A DNA stretch of 64,000 nt from the NCBI GenBank assembly GCA_051294375.1, contig CM119264.1:17310278-17374277 (forward strand), given 5' to 3'. Below, one piece after another: positions 12,356 to 61,810 of this stretch. Every line of letters begins with the position of its first letter. The stretch's first letter is position 1. This DNA is from Paraspadella gotoi (lineage: Eukaryota; Animalia; Chaetognatha). Under the pieces are notes generated by a model, which ran no database searches, was not told the origin of the DNA, and saw only the letters and a list, made by a program, of their open reading frames with translations. The translations under genes and the position numbers were made by a program.

Positions 12356-15005
12356 TCAACAAAGTTTGCAAGCTTTGTTGCAATTTTTGAACATAAACCA
12401 AGGGTTTTTGTCACACTCCCCCCTGTTGGCCCACTCTTGACACCTTTCGTGATTATTGCTACAATTCTGGCACAGTCCACAAGCTTTGGGGCAGTGAGGA
12501 ATCATGTAGTGGCCGTTGTTGCTGCACTCTCCTCTATTCGCCCATTCGTCGCACCGATCGTTTTTGTCTGTGCAGTTCTCGCCTCCACCGCTACCATCAC
12601 CACCATCACCACCATCTCCACCATCACCACCATCTCCACCATCCCCGCCATCTCCACCATCCCCGCCATCTCCACCACCATCTCCAGATCCGCCGTCACC
12701 ACTTCCGCTTAAACCTGTATTCTGTCAAGGGTTTTTAGAAACAAATTTGGTGATTACTTTTTCCTTGGTGTAGTTCATTAAATAAAAAAGAACAAATTAA
12801 TCTGCCGTATTATAGTAATATAAAGATACAATTTTTTTTCTCGTTTTTGCTTGTAAAAATTAAATTTGCATACTTGTTGTATCCAATTAATATAACTCGG
12901 CACCCGGACCCACACGCCAGGGCTGCCAATCTTGTTGCACTTTCCGTCTCCGAAAGAAGTCACTCCAACAACGTTATATTTTCCGTCTTTGCGCTGGCAA
13001 GAAATCGGACCTCCGGAGTCGCCCATGCAGCCGCCCACTCGGCCATCGCCGAAGCAGAAGTGAAAAGCGCGGCTTAACTGATAAGTAACATACCAGTATA
13101 TGGTGCTATAAAAGTTATATTCGATTCATATTATATTCTGTCTGTCTCATTTGTATAATATACTGTATAATCAAATACAAGCGATCATAGAGGTCGGTTC
13201 TTTTCCAGCGCAAAGACGGTTTTGTGGGGCGTCCGGGTGCACTCTTTTGGAAAGACTAATATTTATATATTTATACTAATATTTAATATTTATTAAACTT
13301 GAAAAAAAAATGGATACGAACTATTTTTTAAATCATTTCAATAAAAATTTTATTTTTAGAGTTCATGTTTTTATTTATCGTTTTTTTTTAAATATTTTTA
13401 TCCATTTTAATGAACTTAATCTCACTTGTTTAATCCAGTTAATGTAACTAGGAACCCTTGTCCATATCGCTGGACTCCCGATGACATTGCACTTTCCGTC
13501 ACCGAATGAGGTCACACCGACAACGTTGTACTTTCCGTCTTTGCGCTTGCAAGAGATTGGACCTCCAGAATCGCCCATGCATCCGCCCACTCGACCGTCG
13601 CCGAAACAGAAATGCCAATCGCGACTCAACTATATAAGTTTTTTTTCTTAATCCAATCGTTAGCTATTCGTAATCGTGACTCGAGATGTTTACAATCATG
13701 AGTTGGTAATAAATTCAATATCCCAAACCTGAGACCATCTCCTCCTGCAGTCTTCGTATTTCCAAATCTTTGAACCGACCGTTTGCAATCTCTCGTCCCA
13801 TTGGTTACTGGCACTTTTCATGGTGAAGCCCCAGCCGGATATGTGGCAAAACTGACCTGAGAGGTTTGGTGAAAATATTCTATGTTTTTTTTTTGTTGTC
13901 ACTCATGGAAGAACACATGGGAGAACTCACCCTCATAATCTTCTCCCTGATTTGGAAGGCATGCTGGACCCACGGCGGCGTTGTCGAAAGAGATTGGTCT
14001 TGACATTTTTAACAAAGCGATGTCGTGATAATTTCCGATTCCGCCTATGTGTAATGGGCAAGTTTAAAGAATATAGTTTAATGATGCGCTTAAAGTTTGT
14101 CAACGTATGATGGGCGTCTTTTACTATGCTAACTCACCAGTGTATTTTGGGTGCATGATGACTCGGCTGACCGAGTGTTTGACTTCGTAGGGATCGTTTC
14201 TATTCACGTTGTGATCACCAACGATGACAGTAAAATGAGAAGGGTTGGACCGACTCTCTTTCACGCAATGACTCGCGGTCAGCACCCAATATCGGCTAAG
14301 GATGGAGGCGCCACACGTTGAGAAAGAGCTTGCGCCTTTAAAGTTACAAATACTATACGTCATTTTATTTATTTTTGATTATTTATCAATTATTATTAAG
14401 TTAAAAAAACTCTTCATAAGGTTGCAAAATCAATTAATCAAACCGACCCTCAATTTGCACGCGATTCTAGAAAAAAAATTTTTATGTAATAAAGTCCACA
14501 GACAAAGACGATGGAACTAAAAATTTATTGACTAAATTTTAATCATAAAGAAAAACCGTTCAACCGTGTTGAAACGTATCAAAGGTTTAAATAAAATCTA
14601 GTAATCTCCATCATTTTATTGAACTTCCTCTTTCTCTGACTCTCTCTCTCTCTCTCTCTCTCTCCCCATTGGGGCGCTCTCTCTCTTTTTCTCTTATCTG
14701 GAAGAAATTCTTTTCTTCAAACTCTGCGTTTTGTTTATCCTTTGTTTACCTCTGGGCCAAGAGACTCTTTAGTGAAGCCTCGTTTTTAATAAAATTAACC
14801 CCGTCAACGCGAGAGCCTAATCAAGTCAATTCCATAGAGCCTTACCCGGTCTGCGCCTGATGAGCCTGGCCATCCACGGCCACTCCCCTCTGTTGGCTTC
14901 GTGGCCTCCGACGACCCGAGACGCCGGCCCGCGTTTTCCGCATTCCGGAAACGCGCTGACCACGCCAACACAAAGAAGCAACCAGCAAATGTGACCGCGT
15001 AACAT
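12356..15005 (-). CDS. Secreted S1A (chymotrypsin-like) serine protease with Gly/Asp linker and two C-terminal ShKT domains
   Basis: Exons 15005-14846, 14335-14138, 14044-13931, 13856-13729, [13629-13426 or 13077-12874], 12721-12356; all GT-AG and phase-consistent. Signal peptide MLRGHICWLLLCVGVVSA, activation site R|VVGG, WPWM, catalytic motifs TASHC, DIALL, GDSGGP. The last exon encodes (GDG)n plus two six-Cys ShKT repeats (CTDKNDRCDEWANRGEC...CPKACGLC; CSNNHERCQEWANRGEC...CNKACKLC*). Confidence 0.95.
12874..13077 (-). other. Protease catalytic exon 5b (duplicated exon, copy B)
   Basis: 204 nt, phase 0/0, ttatcag acceptor and gtatgc donor; encodes LSRAFHFCFGDGRVGGCMGDSGGPISCQRKDGKYNVVGVTSFGDGKCNKIGSPGVWVRVPSYINWIQQ. 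Confidence 0.92.
13190..13240 (-). promoter_or_regulatory. Intronic element complementary to the duplicated catalytic exons (putative splicing or editing RNA-pairing element)
   Basis: GC-rich island in an AT-rich intron. 13205-13219 is the exact reverse complement of 12983-12997 (exon 5b, 15 nt), and 13207-13219 of 13535-13547 (exon 5a, 13 nt). 13190-13195 complements 13008-13013 and 13560-13565. 13231-13240 is the exact reverse complement of 12900-12909 (exon 5b only). Confidence 0.75.
13426..13629 (-). other. Protease catalytic exon 5a (duplicated exon, copy A)
   Basis: 204 nt, phase 0/0, tatatag acceptor and gtgag donor; encodes LSRDWHFCFGDGRVGGCMGDSGGPISCKRKDGKYNVVGVTSFGDGKCNVIGSPAIWTRVPSYINWIKQ. 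Confidence 0.92.
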
Positions 15006-15054: not shown

Positions 15055-15482
15055 GGCGATGGCATACTTTAAGTAAGAAAAAGATAAAGTTATTAAATAA
15101 TGATCGTCACGTCTGAACTAAATATCGCTTGGCTCGTCAAGTGAGGCGCAAAACAAAGGGTTGTTGTTATTGTTATCAACGACTCATATCAAAAAGTAAA
15201 AGAAAACAAATAATTTCTTTGTTTGATTAAATCGAGTCGACGATCGATAATTTGCGTATCTTAGGTGAATAATAATACTGATTTTATTTAATTTTATTTT
15301 ATTCATTATGTTATTTAGTAATTTAATTTCATTTACTATTATAATTACCTGATTCCTAAAAAAAATTAAATACTTTTATCAGAGTTTTGAGTCCTCGGAA
15401 TTACTTTTTTTCGGAATCAGCGAATCAGGGATCGGAAACGGAGTAAGTTAGAGCTTTCTTTTAATTCTTTGTTGTCCATCGT

Positions 15483-15707: not shown

Positions 15708-16440
15708 ATGCCGGCCCTGGCAGAGAATATTACGGCAGAGAATATTACGTCTCCCTCCAAAGAGGCCACTCTCTCGAAAGGAGTTTTAAAAGAAACGAAT
15801 GGTCTGAGCGCAACAAAGTCCGAAAACAATGACCTTAATGAAATCCCACTTCTGCTGCGGGAGGAATATTTCTTATGGGGCTGCGAATTATCCAAGTAAG
15901 TTTTGGTTTTACTACGAAGTTTAATTCGATGAATTAAAAATTTCCCCCCCCCCTTCTCCAATCTAATCGAGATCTTGTCCGGAAGTAACCATGGAAGCTC
16001 CTACGCCCAAGAGGCCGGAACATCATTATCTTCATATTCGCCACGCCCTTCTATGCGATGACGCCGTCGAAGGCGATCGCAACATTGTCGAAGTCCGTTA
16101 CGTCGACTACTCCGGAGCCGAGAAACGCCACCGCATCGTAGCGCTCACGTTGGGTCGGGAAGAGTTTGCCCGACTCGACATGACCGTAACTTGGGACGCC
16201 GAGCATCCTCTTACTCTGCGACTGATTAAGGGTTCGGGCCCTTTGACCATCTCCGGGAATCACATCGTCGATCGCAGCGTCGATTCTTGCATCGAGGAAG
16301 ACGAAGCGTCGAAGGTCGAAGAGCAGGAAAAGATGGACGAGGATCACGTTCCCAAGAAAAACGCGATTGACAAAGATACGAAGGCAACCGACGAAAATGC
16401 TAAGCCAGACGAACTGGCTGCTAAAAAAATCAACGACTGA
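15708..16440 (+). CDS. Nucleoplasmin-like histone chaperone
   Basis: Exons 15708-15895 and 15972-16440 (gtaag donor; GAG acceptor at 15971 forced by frame). Nucleoplasmin core motifs FLWGCEL, NIVEV and LRLIKGSGPLTISGNH, followed by an acidic, Lys-rich tail. Confidence 0.9.
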
Positions 16441-16684
16441 ACTCTTAATATTATTTCCTTTTTTTCAACTTGTATGGCACGTTAGATTTGAGGCCGTTTT
16501 GATTTTCGCGAATCCCACGTGCCGAACATGTCGGATGGAAACTTCCTCATTTTGATTCTTTTACTTGCATCGAAATAATACGTCTGCCTGATGAAATCTG
16601 TCATTGTTGCGATATTTTATCTCGGCTGACATATCACAGTGTGACAGATTCCATTGTTGCCGATACTAATCAGTTTTATTTTAG

Positions 16685-17283
16685 ATGGATCTCCCAGTGC
16701 AGCTTCGATATTACGAGACCGAAATGGACATTACTGCTGACGGCGTACTGCTTGGTACCCTTATTATCGAGCTCGACAGGCGCCCAACTCGGAATGCCGC
16801 CGAAAATTTCAAAACGCTCTGCACTGGGGAAATTGGCTACAGCTATAAAGGGAGCAGGTTTACTTTCATTAGACCTGGGATCGAATTTAAAGGTAATAAA
16901 TTTCCAATTTGATCGTTATGCATCGGAAAACGCTGATCTTTTTTTTATATTTCTTACTGCATATCTTCCATTATAATTTTATAGCTGGCGAACTCAACAA
17001 TCCGGACATTCCTGTCGTGAGAAATCTTCAACACGAGATTACCGGACATCAGCATAACAGAAACGACGTAACCTTTGAATTTAAAGGAGATGACAGCGAC
17101 GGAATGCGCTTTGTCATATGCTCAACGAGGACTGGATGGATGGACAATAAAAACTGCCGCTTCGGTCAGGTTCTGTGCGGAGGCGATGTCCTCGACAAGA
17201 TGGAAAAATATGGTTCTCCAGATGGCACTGTTACCGGAGATGTTTATATTTCTCGCTGTAGCCTGCGTCGTTGCCCGTTTTAA
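16685..17283 (+). CDS. Divergent cyclophilin-fold protein, probably PPIase-inactive
   Basis: Exons 16685-16892 and 16985-17283. AENFKTLCTGEIGYSYKGSRF, FVICSTRTGWMDNKNCRFGQV and DKMEKYGSPDG align by eye with cyclophilin A along its whole length; active-site positions are substituted. Confidence 0.88.
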
Positions 17284-17358: not shown

Positions 17359-20300
17359 ATGTGTTCGAGCACCGGAGGGGTACCCTACTTGGGTAGCAAA
17401 ATCAGCCTCATTTCGAAGGTAAGTAGAACAAATTCAAACTGTCCATTATTGTTATTCTTTCTCGAGCTAGCGATATCGAGTTTGAGTTTCGCCTGTTTTG
17501 GATGCTTTTAACGTAACAAGTAAACTACAAGAAATGAGTTTTATTCTTTATTATATTATGTGAAAAGTTTCCAAGCGGACGAATGAGTTACTTCTTACAT
17601 GAATGTTTTTATGAAATTGAACGATTTGGAAATCTCTACTTTAATCAATTTTCAGCTTGTTTCTTCTCAAACTGTCAAAACGAGATTTAAGGTCATCTGA
17701 TCTAATACGAGGCAACATCTTTCACAATTTTAATTTCCTCAACTTAGGCCGATATTCGCTACGAAGGCATCTTGTACACTATCGACCCGAACGAATGCAC
17801 GGTGGCGCTGGCAAAAGTGCAGTCCTTCGGTACGGAGGACCGCGCTACAGAACGCCCCGTCCCTCAACGAGAAGAAGTTTACGAATACATTATCTTTCGA
17901 GGAGGCGACATCAAGGATTTGAACGTGTGCGAACCGCCCAAGGCGCAGATGACCCTCGCGCATCTACAGGTTAATGCATTAACATTTTGGTATATTGAAC
18001 CTTTAAAAACGTTTAATGCTTTTTTCGTAAGGATCCTGCCATCGTTAAACAAAGCGGTCCCGTCTCGGGTTCATCGAATTCTTCCGCGAACGCTTTCTCC
18101 AAAACTAGGTAAAACTGCCTTCCGAAAATGCTGGATATGAACCGAATTTTACATAGTTCTATCTTTAGTGCCCCCATCGTTCCGGCACTAAACACCGCCT
18201 TCAACAATGCTTTAAACGCGCTTCCCACTTCAATTCACTCGTCTAAAACGTCACTGGCCACGCAGAATTTTATCACGGCTAAATTGGCCGAGGCTGCAGC
18301 AGCTTCAAGGAAAGCTTCGGTGCCTCCACCCCTCCAAGTTTCGGGCCTCAAATCTCCGGGATCTAAATCTCCCTCGCCTAAATCACCGACCAAGTGCGAA
18401 CAATTTACCCTTTTTTTTCAAAACTTATATAAAATAGTACGCTGAATACTTTTAATGTTCAACCAATTTACAAATTCTATAAACAATAGTACATCTTTAC
18501 CAGAGCGAAACGATCGCCGAACAACAAGCGCCGGGGCAGTGGCCGCGTCATTCCTCCTTCGACCCCGAAAGAGGGCCTTTTGGCTGAGATGGCGGCAATG
18601 GCCGCGCTGCCTGCCGAACAAACGGGCGATACTTTGACCGCCGAAACTGACAAGATTGTACCTCCAACGGTGTCGCAGTCCGCCGAAGGTTCGCCTCCAA
18701 AGGGCAGCCGACGGCGAAGGTTCGTAAGATCCGAGTAAGTATCGCTCCTTTTATTAAAACTGCAGGTACTTTCTCTTAATCATTCGATTTTCCATCGCCC
18801 CAGAAGGAACGCTGCCATTCCCCGCAGTTCCGTTAGTGGCACGCCAATTCTCGGCGTTCCCGATACCAGCGTTCTTCCCACTGGTACGTCAACGCCGGTG
18901 GCAACTGCCCCCCCGATTGTAGCGGCCCCATCCGTAGAAATGGCATCAGATTCAAAGCCTCAGCGATCTCCACGTCGCCAAAAGTCTTCGAAACGAAGGT
19001 TAATTCTTTCACCTTAAATATATTGCACATTTAAACTTTCTTAACCTGATATTTAGCCAAAGAACTTCTCGCCATTCGGTCAGCAAAGATCCGCCCGTAG
19101 AAAAGGTAGCTCCTGTCCTTGAGCCTCCGGTCCCTGACCCTGCTCCACAGCCTCCTGTGACAACGCCTTCCGGAAATGTCAGGGGTCGCAACGTCAGAGG
19201 CTTGAGCAAGCAGCGCAGTCGGGGCCAGCCCACGAACACTCGGGGTAGCCGACAATCAAACGCGAAAAACCTTTTTAATGGAGGCTTCAATCAAGCTAAT
19301 TATTTTCAGGTTAGATCTGCACTAGAAAATCAACTGCGCTTCAATCAACACATTTACTTTGCAGGGTTTCCAAGCTGGATTTAACCAAGCCCTGCAACAA
19401 GCCTATTTCAACGCCAGCGTCGGCCTTTTTGGATCCCCGATGCAGCAGCGCGGTGGATATAACCGTGGCCGAGGTTAGCTTTTAACATTTTAGTTTTTAG
19501 TTTAAAATTCATTCAACTATTTTGATAAGGCCGCGGTCGTGTCCTATCGCGCGGAACCGGTTATGTTACGCGCGGTGGAGTCCAAAGTAGCGGCCAAAAT
19601 TACAACGCCAATTATGGCACTGGCGGAACTCGACGTGGAGTCTATTCTAGCGGAGGCTACATTGGAACGGGTCGTCCAGTCTTCGATCCTTGCGCTTTTG
19701 TTGGAGATTACGATTTTGAAGAGGCAAATTCTAAGTAAGTTAAAACAAATGCCAGAAAAATTTCGTGAATTCTTAAATTTATTAAAGTTCATAACAGATT
19801 CGATAAAGGAAAAATTCAAGAGGAAGTCCACTTTGTTCAAGAGTTTGTCGATCAAGAAAAAAATATATCGTTGGACAAGTCAAACGAAGCAACAGTTAAA
19901 GGTAATATGAAAACTAATTTTAATTTTCCCATTTTTACATCATTGCCATTTACAGATGCAATTACCAAACTTTCCTCAAAAGATGCAGCCTCGGAAATAT
20001 CGCAAGATTACCCGGTCATCTTCAACCAAAATGGAGAAATATATTATGACAAAAGCAAATCTTTTTATGACAAAATCAGCTGCACTTCCCTCGAGCAGAT
20101 ACAACATCCTCAGCAAATTGTTCAATCTCAAGGTTTTTATTCTGGTCCTAATTATTAATTAAATTTTATGTAAATATATATTTCACCCAGCCGGAAACCG
20201 CGTAACCTGGCGAGAGGCACGCGCACTCAACAGCGAGACTTTCGGGGTTCCTTCTGTCGCTGCTGCACGTCGCTTTGTCCAAGGTGGCGTGCCTCCAGCC

Positions 20301-20968
20301 CATGCTCAAAACATCTACCGTATCTCGCCCAGCCCTCGCGGCCGTGGCAGCCGCAGTTTCTTTCGTGGCTCTCGAGGCTGGAGCCCTCGCGTGAGGGGTT
20401 CGTGGGGACGCGGTCGCGGCTATATGGGCACTTCTTACTACGCGGGTAAATCACAAGTTGATGGCAATCACTTATTCTATCTGCATACTTATACTAATTA
20501 CCGTAGGTCATATGAATGACTACCATGGAACCGACCCGAATCGTCATCTGACAGCAGCTCTGGCCGCTGCCGCCGCTGCTTTACCCCAGAAGAGTGCTCC
20601 CGCTTTCCCAACTTCGCCTTTAATGCAGTCGGCAGTTAAACTCGCGGTCTCTAACGTTGATGGCCCATTGACTCCAGTTTCCCGTAATTTTAATGTTTTT
20701 AAAAAATAAATTCCAATTCTATTATTCATTGTTCTATTTCTTAAAAAAAATATCGCCTTTTTCAGAATCTCGACTCGTATTGCAACCAACGCCTTCCAAC
20801 ACGCCCGTCGCTGTCGCGCCATCTGCTTCTGTCTCCGAAGCGCTTTCTAACGAACCTGTCGTAATCATGTCAGATGATGATCCTGTGGTCGATCCCGGCC
20901 CTGTCCAGTGCGTTCGGGATGAAGTGCTGAAGGATCATGGGGAGACAGTGGCGACGCCGACTGATTAA
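17359..20968 (+). CDS. LSM14: LSM14 / RAP55 / Trailer hitch / Scd6 family mRNA-storage protein
   Basis: Exon 1 17359-17418 ([20 protein letters not shown]); exon 2 17748-17969 ([32 protein letters not shown]...[19 protein letters not shown]); exon 3 starts DPAIV. Later short-intron exons encode RGG-rich tracts, an FDF-like motif ([11 protein letters not shown], about 19703-19735), an FFD-box-like motif ([14 protein letters not shown], about 20042-20083) and a TFG box (LNSETFG, about 20226-20246). Probable stop at 20968; internal exon boundaries were not all resolved. Confidence 0.93.
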
Positions 20969-22264: not shown

Positions 22265-22479
22265 GAAGCAGTGACGAAAACCTACTGAGGCTATTCTATT
22301 CCTTTCATTTCTAATAATATTATTCGATTAAATAATAACCAGTAAATACTGATGCTTATTTTTGCTATTTTATTGCCAAACATTTTATCAGCGTTTTAAA
22401 TAAAATTTTTTTATAAGTTTAAATATATAAAACAATCTTTTAAAATTATTTGGTAAAACTGAGTTTTCGTCACTGCTTC
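22265..22479. mobile_element. MITE-like element with 17-bp perfect terminal inverted repeats
   Basis: GAAGCAGTGACGAAAAC (22265-22281) and GTTTTCGTCACTGCTTC (22463-22479) flank an AT-rich core; no clear target-site duplication seen. Confidence 0.55.
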
Positions 22480-22815
22480 CTTTTTTCTTTAAACTTACGG
22501 CCCGATCTTCGTGTCTCCAGTCTCCACACCCAAAAAACAAACACTTGAGTCATCGTTCTATAACCAGCATAATACTTGTAATTCCGAGAATGTGTTATTG
22601 CCTCAATGCGACGCAATATGAAAAATCAAATATATTCCTTGGGTTAACATGAAATAAATTAATCGAAGGTAAACGAACTAAATGAAATGTGCTTTCAATA
22701 TATGAACGCGAACCACTGTTAATCCTTGTTTACCGGATCCCTGTACTTAACGTTAAATCTGGTAATTAAAACTCTTTAACTAGCCATTCTAAACAGAGCC
22801 CATAAAAAATAACGG

Positions 22816-23266
22816 ATAAATTTTACTTTCGCCGACCGCGGTTTAGGCGGCTTTTGAAAAATGTTTATTTTAACCTTAACCTTTCCCTAACCCCGGTCGG
22901 CGAAAGTAAAAGTAACCCAAAATTACTTGTTTGCTAATCTAATCTCCAAAGAGTTAAGATTAATAATTTTATTCGCCAACACACCGGCCACGTCTTTTGT
23001 TTCAAATTCTCAGTTCTGCGATAATATCACGTACAGCGCCAACTCTGTAAGGTCTACTTTAGTTTCTTTGGTTAAAAAAAAATTCTAAATTATTTGTCAG
23101 TTGTCTAAAATATAGTGGTCTTATTTAATATATTTGCACGATAATATGGACAGGGATGTTAGTTTTATCTTCTGGAAGTAGAGGGAACATCTACACAAAA
23201 CGAGGTTAAAAATATTTTCTGCCTTAGGTTTCGAATTAGACGCGGTCGGCGAAAGTAAAATTAATC
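22816..23266. mobile_element. MITE-like element(s) with one left and two right inverted termini
   Basis: TTTTACTTTCGCCGACCG (22821-22838) is inverted perfectly at 22894-22911 and again, slightly longer, at 23241-23266; internal TAACCT/TAACCC-type repeats. Confidence 0.55.
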
Positions 23267-47606: not shown

Positions 47607-50600
47607 GGATCTTCCTACGGTAGGCCATTTTTTTTTCCACTCCATACTTTGTAACTTCTGCCTTCACTTTATTCGACTTTTTTTTTCTTGCCTCGCCGAC
47701 TGCAGTTCGCTTTTCCGCCTTCCTTTCTTTTCCTTTCCTTCTCTCTCGTTCCCTTATTTCCTCTGGCTTTGTCATTATTAAACATTTCCATCATCCCTTA
47801 GTAACATTTCTTTGTTCAGCTCTTGATCCTCCTTCTTCTTCTTTCTTCATAACGCCACCTTGCCTTCGATTGCAAAAAGAACATTGGCGGATGAGGCAGT
47901 TAAAAAAAAAGACGAAATCAAGCGAAAAAAAATAAAATATGAAAAGGATGCTCTATGGATGTACCCTGGCCGATGTGGCCGTTAATGCTTAATAGTTCTC
48001 ATCTCTTTTATGTTTTCTTCTTTTCTCCTGTCCGTTTAAGTAGGAATCATTTGGCCTATCCTCCCCCTTCTCCTTCCCCTTCTCCTTCTTCTTCCTTCTT
48101 CTTTCTTTTCTTTCTTTCTTTCTTTCTTTCTTTTTCTCTTCTTTCTTTTCTTTCTTCTTTTCTTTCTTTCTTCTTTATTTCTCTCTTTTTCTCTGTCTTC
48201 CTCCCCTCTCTTTACGCCCAAGAAAAAAATGTTCATAAAGNNNNNNNNNNNNNNNNNNNNNNNNNNNNNNNNNNNNNNNNNNNNNNNNNNAAAAAAAGCG
48301 TGGAGAAAGGGATGAAGCGGCGAACTTTTTTTTTTAAGCGATGGTAAGTTAGACCTTTTATATCCTTTTATAGCCCTTTCGGTGGAGGGAGAGGATGATG
48401 AGGAAGAGCAAGGGTAAAAGTAGTAGAAGGAGGCCGAGGAGAAGGTTTTATGTCTTCCCTGTATTTTCTCGCCCGCTCGTTTTTATCCGTCACTACGATC
48501 GCGAAGTGAGCCGATCGGGGGGAAAAAAATGAGCCGATCAAAACTGAAACTGTTCGAGCTTGAGTCTCAGGTAGCGAGAGACGAACTGAATCGAAGATGA
48601 GGTAAGGTAAGGTGAGTTGATCGAGAATCAGGCTCTTGGGAAGCGAGATTCTCTGAATATTTCTCACGGGTTGAATGATGAGTTATCTATTTATTCTTTT
48701 ATAATATACGTATATATTCAATTGAATTATTTTGAATTTCATAAATAAAGGGGAAAAAACTGAACCAAAGCAGTGAACTGGGGCGATACTAACGATAAAT
48801 AGTGTGAGAGAGAGAGAAAGAGAGAGAGAGAGCTGAAGTCCTGTCCAGCATTTTAAGCCAAAATGGCATGAACAGGAACTCCCACAGTCCAAATGGGTGA
48901 TAATGGCCGTCTTGTTTGGCGATCGGCCTCAGCCACAGGGGATCTGGTGATTACCTTTTACACAGATCTATTTTTGAAAAGATGGTCACCAGCAATTGTC
49001 TTGCGTTAAAATCCATCAAATGACGGAATTTAGGGTAGCGGTCATCTACTGTAGCTGCGTTTAAGCGCCTGTAGTCGCCGCAGGGGCGTAGTGAAACCAT
49101 CAGGTTTGCGTACTACATGCAGAGGGGAGGCCCATGCAGATGTGGAGGCGGCGTATTATCCGAGCTCCTCCATTTTTTTTAAACTTCAGCTTTGGCGGCA
49201 GCCTAGCTGGTCTGGTGCAAGACGGGGTGCACGGGCGTGGACTGGAGGCCTTGGGTTGGATATGGTGCTTACACCATGTTTTGGGGGGAGAGACGGCTTT
49301 AAACACCATTTGGTAAGCTCAGGGGCGTCACTAAAGAGTGCTGAGTTACGGCGGTCACGAAACATGGAGAACTCGTGGTGGTGGCGCAGTGAGTGGCGTC
49401 TGTGTGCGTGGCTGGCTATGACTGATGTGTCAAATCAAGCAGGAATGCGACGGCTGGTGATCAACACCAAGGTGGTGTTCCATGAGGAAGTCTGCACCTA
49501 GTATGGGTGTTGCAACATCAGCTATAGCAACAAGGTAAGGAAGAGCTCGTTCCCCAGGCGAACTGTCATTCTCACGTACACCATAGAGTGCGATAGGAGA
49601 GTCATGCGGCGCGTAAAAGGTGGCAGTTTGCGGCAGTAAGCGAGCCTTTGATGCCGGCAGGATCTGCTTCAGCAGCGGGCGCGATCGGCGTCGGTGGCGG
49701 GAGTAGCGTAGCCTCGGACCCAACCATCGACTAACCAGTCAAGGCCGGCGTTAAATTGTCGCGTACGTTAAAACAATTTGTAATCAGTGCTTGCCGGGCG
49801 GACACGGCGACTATCGGGCCGCCGGCGTTGGCTTTGGCTGGTGCCATTGGGCAAGAAGCACCTTCACAGTGGATGCTTCACGTTCCATAGTTGTAATGAT
49901 AGTAGCACTTTTGTTTCACCTGGTGGAGGTTTTTGTGGGCGTCGTCGAAATGTTGGTGCTCGCCGTGGTTGTTGGTTGGTCCTTGGCAGACTTGCCGAGG
50001 GCGGGCTTGTGGCTGCCATGGGTGGTGGACGGCGGACAGCATTGGCATTATGATGGAGTGTTCAGGGTCGAGTACATCAATGGGATCTTCGTACTCTTCT
50101 GTGGAGAGGAAGGGTCTGGAAAATTCATTCTTCCAATTTAGTGCTTTGATGGCATTTACTGTTGCAGAGGCTGTGGGCGGAGCAAGAGGTGCGGAGCTGT
50201 CCAGTTGGTAAGTAAAATTCCTCTGCTCCTTAGCCAATGGCATCTAGCTTTTTTCCATCTTTACAGGGCATTGGTCACGAACACTTGAATGAAGAGGCAG
50301 TTTCAAGCAATAGCAGCAATGACATGAATCAAGAGCTTAAGATTAACTGGCCTGCTGCCCCCCCAGAGTTGATTCCAAGGCGGAAATTGGATGGAGGTTG
50401 CTCCTTTCATGGGATGTCATCTTCAGTAGTTTCATGGGCTTTCTGGTTCTTTTTGCGGACCATAAATTCATTTATAAAGGTGAGAGTGGAGAAAGCGTGT
50501 AGGAATTCGCAGAAAAAGAAGAGTCCTGACGGATGACGCTGGAATGAGACGGTGCTTTCTCAACTGGGATTGCGGCGAGTATATGCGCGGCCCTTTGTCG

Positions 50601-51200
50601 ACTGAAATCTCGTTGATGTTGGCAACCCGAAATGCGATGTCGGCGTGGCCAAGCCACTCTTTCTATGTGATTCGGCATCGAAAGGCGCAGCTTAGGCGTT
50701 CTTTGTCGCGATGGAAAGGGAGGGTGCCTGCTTGCGCGGGGCCCCCGCGTATGGGAAGTGTCCGAGTCCGAGTTTCAAAGACGTTATACTGAGGTCTCCG
50801 CGGGTTTTTCCAAGAGCGACGCGGTTCCTCAAACCTCTTTGGTGAGTGCGTCCAGAGCTGCTTATAAGTCTTTGAATGATCGGGCGAGCGACGGAAGTGG
50901 CCGGGCCCGGTGGCGCCCCCTCGCTCGGTGGAGCAAGCTTGACGAATCGATGGTTTTTCAGAGCGGATCAACATATGCGTGTAGGACATTGTCATGTTTC
51001 GCGAGGTCTTACCACGTTGCGCGACTTGCGGGGTGGGAGTTCGCCGGTAGCCAGTTTGAATTTTAGAGTAAAAGTTTTTGATTCTTATATTTTTTTGTTA
51101 GAGAGAACGGACGGAATTATTTTTTTTTTTAGTTTTTTGTTATTTGTTTTTTTAATTGGCGAGGAAAAAGGGCCAAAAGTTTTTGTATATTTTTTTTTTA

Positions 51201-59057: not shown

Positions 59058-60369
59058 CTCTCTCTTCTCTACTCTCTCCTACTCTACTCTGCATTCTCAT
59101 TCTATCTCTCTCTGCGGTAAAGTGATCAGTTATGTCGGCCGCGTTTGTACATCAGCCGACGAAATCAGGTCGTCGAAATGTTATTCCCGGCAGATGGTGC
59201 GCTTTGTTATTTTATTCGAAACGAGGGTTAGATCGTCAGCGCTGGCCATAGGTGTCCAGATTTTGAGGAAGAAGTGACGATGACGATATGTTGCGTTTTT
59301 CGCGGGGTCACTTTAGTTCGCTGGAGAAGAGAGGAGGGAGTGCAGGGGTGAGACGGGAGGGATGGGGATGGGGCTGAGAAACAGAAAGGAGGGAAATTAC
59401 TGATATCCTAGTGATATGATTCGCGGCGTCAGGGAAACGCGCAGTTACGAAAACGTCGTACGGACGATGAAAAAATGTGGAGACGGAAATGGTGGTGAAA
59501 TGGTGGGGGGATGGCGTTGGTGGTTTGGTGTGAGTAGCGCGTGGAAGTGAAATTAAAAAAACGGAGGCGGTGAGAACGAGAGACTCTGTATCAGGGGCGA
59601 TTGTTCATGTATTGTAAGTAATAATTAATTGTAATAACCTTAATATTCCACTGGTTTTTCTGGGTCTGATCTCAAGCCTAAAATTCTGAGATAATCCAGA
59701 CAAGCAACTGCGGTAGGATGCGTTATGATTGAAGTTAATTTCGTGCCGGTGAAAAGCGAGTGGTGACGATAATGATCGAGTCTTCACAGATGCAATGCTG
59801 GAGTAAAGTTTACTGCAGTCGCCTCTCTATTTCCCATCCCAATAATTTAATGACTTTTCAAAGTTCGATATGAAAAAGTAATTTGAGAATCATTTTCCTG
59901 CGTCTATCTACTCGAAATTAAATGAAGACAATTTTAAAATTTGCCTCGACTGTCGGTTATTGATAGACTTAAGTACAATCGTATAATGTATATAAGTAAA
60001 AAAAGTCGTGGAGACTTCAAACTCCCCATTTCTTTACTGATCCATTTCTCCCCACCTCGTTGTATTCACGAACGAGGCAATTTATATCCAACGTAATCCA
60101 ATCAAAACCATAATGTCTTTTAAATCGTCTTTCATTTTCAAACGGACCGAAATGTTTCTGAGAAAGACGACGACGACGACGAGACGATGAACTTCCATTC
60201 ACCGGCTTCAACATCGAAAATGGAAAGAGTTTCGATCGTTCTCTCTTCTCTCACCTCCCGCCCTTAACCCCCTCTTCTCCCCTCCACAACCGGCACCACC
60301 GCTTGCTGCACTTACCCAAACAGAACTTCAGTCGAGGCCGCCCATAAACGACGCGTCGAGACGAAAATG

Positions 60370-60401
<32 letters not shown>

Positions 60402-60667
60402 AGAAAACGTTTTGCCGTTGTTTCCGATTCTCTAAGTGCCGATGCCCAGAATGTTTGTAGCGTCTCTCCTCTCTCTCTCTCTCTCCTCCTCTCTCGTCTC
60501 TCTCTCTCTCTCTCGTCCTCTCTCTCCTCTCTCTCTCTTCTCTNNNNNNNNNNNNNNNNNNNNNNNNNTGGAGGGGGAGAGAGGGGGTAAGGGCGGGAGG
60601 ATGGAGAGAAGAGAGAACTGATCGCAAACTCTTTCCTTTTCGATGTTTGGAAGCCGGTGAAATGGAA

Positions 60668-60706
<39 letters not shown>

Positions 60707-61810
60707 TTTCTCAGAAACATTTCGGTCGTTTGAAAATGAAAGAACGTTTAAAAGACATTTGGTTTTGATTGGATTACGTTGGTATAAATTGCCTTCGTTC
60801 GTGAATAACAAGAGGTGGAAGGAGAAAAAGGATCAAGTAAAGAAATGGAGGAGTTGAAGTCTTCACGACTTTTTTTTACTTATATACATTATACGATTGT
60901 ACTTAAGTCTATCGTAACCGAGAGTCAGGCAAATTTTAAAATGTCTTCATTTAATTTCGAGTAGATAGAGCAGGAAATGATTCTCAAATTACTTTTTCAT
61001 ATCGAACTTTGAAAAGTCATTAAATCATCGAGACGGGAAATAGAGAGCGATGCAGTAAACTTTACTCCAGCCATTGCATCACCATCACCACTCCTTTTCA
61101 CCGCCACGAATTATCTCAATCATAACGCCATCGTATCACAGTTGCTTGTCTGGATTATCTCGAATTTTAGGCTTGAGATCAGACCCAGAAAACCGTGAAA
61201 TATTAAGGTTATTACAAATAAATTATTAAATTACAATACATGAAACGATCGCCTGAGACAAGTCATTCAACGCCCCTGAATACAGAGTCTCTCGATTTCA
61301 CCGCCTCCGTTTTTTTTAATTTCACTCCACCGCTACTCCACCAAACCACCAACGCCAATCCACCCCCACCATTTCCACCACCATTTCCGTCTCCACCATT
61401 TTTTCATCGTCCGTCGACGTTTTCGTAACTGCGCGTTTCCCTGACGCCGCGAATCATAAGTCACTAGGATATCGTCATTTCCTCCTTTCTGTTTCTAACC
61501 CCCATCCCCCCATCCCCCCGTCCTCTACCCCACTGCACTCCCTCCTCTCCTTCTCCAGCGAACTAAAAAGTGACCCGCGAAAAAAACCACATTCGTCATC
61601 AGTCACACTTCTCCTCAAAATCTGGGAACCTTTACCAGCGGCTGACGACTAACCCTCGTTTTAGAAAAAATACAAAGCGCCACATCTGCAGGAATAACAT
61701 TTCGAAGACTCGATTTCGTCGCTGATGTAAAACGCGGCCGACATAACTGCATCACTTTACCGCAGAGAGAGGATAGAGAGATAGAGAGATAGGGAGATAG
61801 AGAGAGAGAG

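Follow-up and report, generated by a model that had tools for sequence, protein, structure and literature searches.

In the human ATE1 gene, the R3 element located between the exons 7a and 7b pairs with either R1 or R4, and double inclusion rises when R3 is mutated, while the isoform ratio has been linked to an energy difference and to the elongation rate (PMC7797038). In Dscam1 and in beetles, pairings between intronic elements and exons promote the downstream exons or balance the choice (PMC12962786, PMC8042237), and in SCN8A an intronic sequence pairs with exon 5b (PMC12772994). Here we describe a 64,000-nucleotide stretch of the genome of the chaetognath Paraspadella gotoi (GenBank assembly GCA_051294375.1, contig CM119264.1, positions 17,310,278 to 17,374,277; hereafter the window), where the intron separating two homologous exons, 5a and 5b, of a minus-strand chymotrypsin-like protease gene carries an antisense element complementary to both of them. 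The antisense feature is real and lies in a truly alternatively spliced gene; that it is functional is likely, though unproven. We consider it probable that it works like the ATE1 element, as a centrally placed sequence for which targets within two coding exons compete, and that it enforces the choice of one exon out of two.

In both spliced forms of the gene the frame stays open through a protease domain (Pfam Trypsin), followed by a Gly/Asp linker and a pair of ShK-like domains, and all introns have GT-AG ends (Table 1). The twin exons are adjacent homologues of equal length and phase, with 160/204 identical nucleotides and 60/68 identical amino acids. Nine sequencing runs contain the stretch, one of which, X9, we guess to be an RNA run; it harbors seven intron-sized joints with GT-AG ends that are missing from the DNA runs. 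Around the twin exons these joints are 13629/13729 and 12721/13426 for 5a, and 13077/13729 and 12721/12874 for 5b. Two X9 contigs, exon 4-5a-exon 6 (depth 173.6) and exon 4-5b-exon 6 (depth 206.1), each run continuously through both joints, and neither a 5a-5b nor an exon 4-exon 6 joint occurs among the 7 and the 4 X9 joints listed, in contigs of one run that drop rare paths. The joints and pieces were taken from among the matches listed, and the depth cannot rank the parts. From the way such graphs are built, an abundant third splice path should have split the X9 contigs. At the contig level, exons 5a and 5b are mutually exclusive, as the original prediction had assumed: the paths observed contain a single exon of the pair.

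Judging from the sequence, the usual non-structural causes of exclusivity fail. First, the intron is not too short, the 348 nucleotides between 5a and 5b making it the second longest of six. Second, with an AG 30 nt upstream of the acceptor, the intron lacks the long AG-free stretch that a distant branch point would call for. Third, the donors GTGAGA and GTATGC, with their GT-AG ends, are not U12-like, which sets aside U12 or mixed U2-U12 sites. Fourth, a transcript including both 5a and 5b stays in frame with no stop, which sets aside frameshift decay.

The element occupies the 60 bases 13181-13240 of the 5a-5b intron, where it forms an island of 57% GC in an intron of 19% GC; it is longer than had been reported. 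The sequence is as the original prediction described it, including the perfect complements of 15 nt to 5b (13205-13219 with 12983-12997) and of 13 nt to 5a (13207-13219 with 13535-13547), as well as the correctly nested 10-nt block that has its match in 5b alone (13231-13240 with 12900-12909). In forced folds, block B forms 34 pairs with 5b and 33 pairs with 5a, its duplexes spanning the Gly193-Asp194-Ser195 codons and the following loop, and block A forms 15 pairs with 5b. The block B duplexes have near-equal energies across the exons (-49.3 versus -50.0 kcal/mol) because this block is a mosaic, in which codons 20 and 21 provide pairs specific to 5a (1.9-2.9 kcal/mol each) and codon 28 provides one specific to 5b (4.3-5.6 kcal/mol), whereas block A reaches -28.1 for 5b versus -9.9 for 5a. 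With blastn, the element had no repeat in the 64-kb window besides itself, its exon matches and two 10-nt chance matches, and the single Rfam match (E 0.79) is under its gathering score. The DNA contigs of run X5 span the element without differences, and it falls outside those of X6, X7, X8 and X1. Over 13209-13374, an X9 contig of low depth has no substitution, and is too thin to use. In X4, a 4-nt insertion beside the element (at 13181), which recurs at 15101, repeats a GATC site and was read as a probable proximity-ligation artefact, not an allele.

Similarly to ATE1, this locus has a single element in the intervening intron that is complementary to homologous sites of both duplicated exons, pairing in ATE1 being known to hinder one exon (PMC7797038). 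However, the R1 and R4 targets of ATE1 lie in introns, immediately 5' of the exons, where they overlap the 3' splice sites (PMC7797038), whereas the present targets are wholly coding, at least 55 nt from the acceptor and over the catalytic codons, with an extra exon-specific block; moreover, the ATE1 pairing is conserved and proven by mutations (PMC7797038), whereas the present one is known from sequence and folding. The locus also resembles the balancers of Dscam1 exon 6 (PMC12962786) and the exon-resident selectors of beetles (PMC8042237), in that an intronic element pairs, competitively, inside alternative coding exons; there the intronic partner stands upstream of the whole cluster, whereas here it stands between the two exons and pairs either backwards or forwards. 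As in Dscam1, 14-3-3zeta, Mhc, MRP1 and the bidirectional docking/selector system of srp, competing pairings occur in tandemly duplicated exons, where the duplication of one arm gives two competitors (PMC6071210), but in these systems whole exons are looped out by docking sites of the flanking introns (PMC6071210), whereas no significant docking site was found here and the duplicated arm is the exon itself. The arm-duplication model, as set out in PMC6071210, would yield the present layout if the duplicated arm were the exon. The architecture has more precedent than had been implied, since the human R3 is already a central toggle and Dscam1 has intron-exon pairings. Nevertheless, our searches, which covered open-access literature, turned up neither a central element whose two targets both lie entirely within coding exons nor an example from a protease, though the Dscam1 and ATE1 supplements may hold closer cases; the passages of PMC7430681 and PMC11802352 that we cite add nothing on exon-internal targets.

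Several lines of evidence place the complementarity above chance. First, a perfect complement of at least 13 nt occurs in only 2 of the 42 intron-exon pairs of the gene, the remaining 40 having at most 10 nt. Second, dinucleotide shuffles of the intron reached 13 nt against 5a in 1/5000 cases and 15 nt against 5b in 2/5000 cases. Third, no shuffle of the element alone (0/1000) matched the duplex energies. Fourth, the folds have z-scores of -5.13, -4.70 and -5.96. On these sequence statistics, a chance origin of the complement is excluded. In the 64-kb window, 17 of the 651 perfect inverted repeats of at least 13 nt within 1 kb pass the complexity filter, and two of them are the matches of the element.

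The proteins encoded by the twin exons differ at 8/68 residues, including Ala/Gly226, Ile/Val227 and Thr/Val229. Chymotrypsins are the best solved relatives of exon 5b, and in that alignment exon 5 corresponds approximately to residues 175-240, including Gly189 and Ser195. Position 226 is one that we take to shape the S1 pocket. Both Ala226 and Thr229 are present in all 26 aligned relatives covering the site (rows from 8 clusters, not independent events), and 5b-like residues at codons 54 or 57 were found in none of these 26 relatives. Because all of them carry Ala226 and Thr229, we regard exon 5b as the derived copy. The nearest Atlas cluster of a relative protease consists mostly of Arthropoda. 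The best 150 matches of a search for representative homologues were mostly generic trypsins, and apparent exon swaps among 'merc' proteins were set aside, as they may be assembly chimeras. Over 12992-13062, runs X1, X7, X8 and X9 also contain a paralogous protease, with 13 differences in 71 nt, which seems to lack the intron preceding exon 5 because its DNA and RNA contigs have the same flank.

Regarding the age of the pairing, the values of pS (0.71) and dN (0.08) between 5a and 5b indicate that synonymous sites are near saturation, and the chance that all 25 core bases (15 + 10 nt) stay unchanged is about 1e-5 at a branch length of 0.5. Because of this near-saturation, an unselected copy made at the time of the duplication could not have kept perfect cores. 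The intron flanks of the two exons have no detectable similarity upstream (408/1000 shuffles), the downstream value being 35/1000. Block B has nine differences to 5a and nine to 5b, and its 3' half is better aligned to 5a (0/20000 shuffles) than to 5b (26/20000). Block A matches the codons of 5b, where the residue of codon 57 differs from all 26 aligned relatives; since these codons are derived, block A postdates or tracked the divergence of 5b. The longest run of identity between 5a and 5b (16 nt) falls under the core. The proposal that third positions are kept identical at the target stands for codons 26-32, with 7/7 identical versus 25/58 elsewhere (p=0.008, and 0.016-0.038 for the five core codons; class-stratified permutation leaving out three Met/Trp codons), but it is weak if the site is not fixed beforehand; no such excess occurs at codons 19-25 (3/7) or at the block A target (2/6).

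From these data we propose the following mechanism. At any given moment, the antisense element would pair with the central coding part of just one exon, the paired exon being silenced and the other left free. Folding of the growing transcript predicts that 5a is captured first, while 5b is still untranscribed (probability of the core being with 5a of 0.994-0.998 until position 12990), and that the element switches to 5b once the target of the latter emerges (core on 5b at 0.97-0.999), block A acting as a second clamp. The silencing step that we prefer is a loss of exon definition, in which the enhancers of the paired exon would be buried and the intron tethered to the exon. Exactly one exon would be masked at any time, and because folding predicts that the element has one exon partner, never none or both, this logic would block both double inclusion and double skipping, provided that binding silences. 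The isoform ratio would be set kinetically, depending on whether commitment or release of 5a comes before the definition of 5b, and not by equilibrium, because equilibrium would silence 5b nearly always, yet the 5b path is plentiful; the full-region ensembles differ by about 9 kcal/mol. We also advance, as a tentative and rather doubtful extension, that the element, as a co-evolved mosaic of both exons, might alone enforce the choice via the catalytic codons, through a co-transcriptional strand-displacement switch (5a first, then 5b invading with its private clamp) that would freeze synonymous sites in both exons and toggle the S1 pocket (Ala/Gly226) of a secreted protease.

The central toggle of the original prediction is supported indirectly, by the exclusive contigs, the failure of the non-structural causes and the balanced mosaic pairing, and is not proven. 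Its companion claim, that pairing loops out splice sites, is weak: the sites are not paired by the element and their predicted accessibility shifts by at most 0.07. According to a review, looping need not stop spliceosome binding (PMC10790352). A docking site for the element was not found in intron 4 (best complement of 4 nt) or in the intron between 5b and exon 6 (8 nt), nor was a second structural module, the best other intron-intron complement being 11 nt, a length reached in 1171/5000 shuffles and thus at chance level. This 11-nt complement, which is AU-rich, joins 13406-13416, at the intron start after 5a, with 12772-12782, in the intron after 5b, a position that would suit a downstream docking pair. 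An AU-rich intronic stem (13115-13126 / 13169-13180), immediately 3' of the element, is predicted in both conformers, and would shorten the path of the element to the 5b acceptor.

Several observations speak against a central toggle, and should be weighed with the above. The full-length fold puts the core on 5b at 0.999, even when block A is forced open, so that the model requires kinetic trapping, which is itself a proposed step, and blocking the element moves the predicted accessibility of the six splice sites by no more than 0.07. If allowed anywhere in the exon, the synonymous run has p=0.20; there is no G-U strand asymmetry (-49.3 versus -48.7, and -50.0 versus -50.2, on the opposite strand); and the 11 differences in 58 columns do not reject the uniform decay of a 5b copy (p 0.07-0.23). 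A metagenome scan returned no orthologue, its 154 pattern matches yielding one locus, 50% identical over 51 residues. Finally, the RNA evidence comes from the contigs of a single run, where rare paths drop out, and the depths of the two exons (173.6 + 206.1) sum above those of the flanking contigs (214.8 upstream, 158.7-193.7 downstream).

The alternative that survives best, and which we regard as unlikely but worth retaining, is that the element is a neutral inverted copy of 5b, in two pieces, acquired well after the duplication by template switch or repair insertion, exon choice being made by proteins or splice-site strength. The failure to reject a uniform decay from 5b and the lack of wobble asymmetry agree with such a copy, as do the 15 other non-simple perfect inverted repeats of at least 13 nt within 1 kb in the window and the fact that the match to 5a partly follows from exon homology. 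However, a neutral copy needs an internal deletion of about 60 nt, or two pieces, plus a landing between the twin exons; codons 20 and 21 must also have acquired bases of the 5a type, with block A being of the 5b type throughout, and the longest stretch of identity between 5a and 5b must sit under the core. Moreover, such a copy gives no cause for mutual exclusivity.

We give a lower probability, and a small one, to a functional pairing whose role would be to tune the 5a:5b ratio, chiefly by silencing 5b, or else to activate instead of mask, exclusivity coming from elsewhere as for ATE1 R2-R5, SCN9A ISRE1-2 and the Dscam1 balancers. The strong preference of the equilibrium for the 5b duplex and the 5b specificity of block A are consistent with such a role, and some pairings of ATE1 (PMC7797038) and SCN9A (PMC12772994) are described as shifting the ratio while exclusivity is kept. 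On the other hand, the 5a-specific pairs and the balance of block B would be superfluous in a pure 5b silencer, and the second structural module expected to provide exclusivity was not found, as stated above.

In the GluA2 transcripts, the Q/R and R/G sites are edited with the help of editing-complementary sequences, and an imperfect intron-exon duplex of 33-34 bp, as predicted here, has the right length and shape for a site-selective substrate of ADAR. As in GluA2, the imperfect duplex associates a coding exon with its neighbouring intron, but no edit is seen in the present contigs and the element has two alternative exon partners. That the element guides ADAR recoding of one or both exons, as the original prediction suggested, is very improbable in our opinion. 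Across the two exons, the RNA contigs agree fully with the genome, with no other letter, a result that excludes majority edits only, minority editing being invisible in contigs; none of the 26 aligned relatives, in which the presence of the element is not established, has Arg at codon 28, or Arg or Glu at codon 30; and R1-R5 of ATE1 are reported not to be ADAR substrates (PMC7797038). Lastly, an inert inverted remnant of the exon duplication itself, the null that came with the original prediction, can be rejected in that form with near certainty, for although the element sits between the copies with block B equidistant from them, the synonymous sites are near saturation, the upstream flanks have no detectable similarity, the 25 core bases are unchanged and block A fits the derived codons of 5b.

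Table 1. Exons of the protease gene, antisense element and pairing targets (positions in the window).
Feature	Positions	Strand	Evidence
Exon 1, coding part (signal-peptide-like start, propeptide, VVGG opening the protease domain)	14846..15005	-	RNA-run joint 14334/14845
Exon 2 (Pfam Trypsin; catalytic His motif TASHC)	14138..14335	-	gene model, Pfam, RNA contigs
Exon 3 (catalytic Asp motif DIALL)	13931..14044	-	gene model, RNA contigs
Exon 4, constitutive, spliced to 5a or 5b	13729..13856	-	gene model, RNA contigs
Exon 5a, 204 nt, phase 0-0, GDSGGP; Ala226 (chymotrypsin numbering), as in every aligned relative	13426..13629	-	
Block B target in exon 5a, codons 19-32; 13-nt perfect core 13535-13547	13535..13574	-	
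Intron 5a-5b, 348 nt, GT-AG, 19% GC outside the element	13078..13425	-	
Block A of the element, a complement of 5b alone; perfect core of 10 nt, 13231-13240	13224..13240	-	
Block B of the element, a complement of 5a as well as of 5b; 5' half nearer 5b, 3' half nearer 5a	13181..13219	-	
Exon 5b, 204 nt, phase 0-0, GDSGGP; Gly226 and Val229, in none of the aligned relatives	12874..13077	-	
Block B target in exon 5b; 15-nt perfect core 12983-12997	12983..13022	-	
Block A target in exon 5b, codons 55-60; ends 26 nt before the 5b donor site	12900..12915	-	
Exon 6, coding part: Gly/Asp linker and two ShK-like domains	12356..12721	-	

Elsewhere in the window, the plus strand at 15991-17283 has an open reading frame with a nucleoplasmin domain (Pfam), followed within about 250 nt by exons that look cyclophilin-like by eye; they may belong to a nucleoplasmin-cyclophilin fusion, resembling the known nucleoplasmin-FKBP chaperones, or to two close genes. 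An LSM14-like gene follows on the same strand (about 17650-20700), its closest unnamed relatives being 902-948 amino acids long, about twice the size of the listed named LSM14 proteins; among the latter, the nearest come from annelids and molluscs. Fragments of open reading frames at 49000-51100 look, by eye, like a degenerate gag/protease region of a retrotransposon. The region 22265-23262 has three perfect inverted repeats of 17-22 nt, two of which have a common arm, and these are possibly transposon ends. Nine of the 17 filtered inverted repeats belong to a long imperfect fold-back at 59931-60942, with perfect arms of up to 43 nt, which surrounds an assembly gap (60544-60568) and may be transposon-like or an assembly artefact.

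If the proposed choice mechanism is true, the protease gene would come close to the most compact self-contained design by which splicing can be made mutually exclusive, and any exon with an antisense arm in its intron would become a one-of-two switch once duplicated, which would extend the Ivanov-Pervouchine duplication model to a coding exon as the duplicated arm. As the whole unit is only about 1 kb long, both its polarity (masking or activating) and its kinetic versus thermodynamic control are testable in a minigene. Together, these features would mean that RNA pairing constrains synonymous codons at the active site, and that splicing tunes the specificity of the protease.
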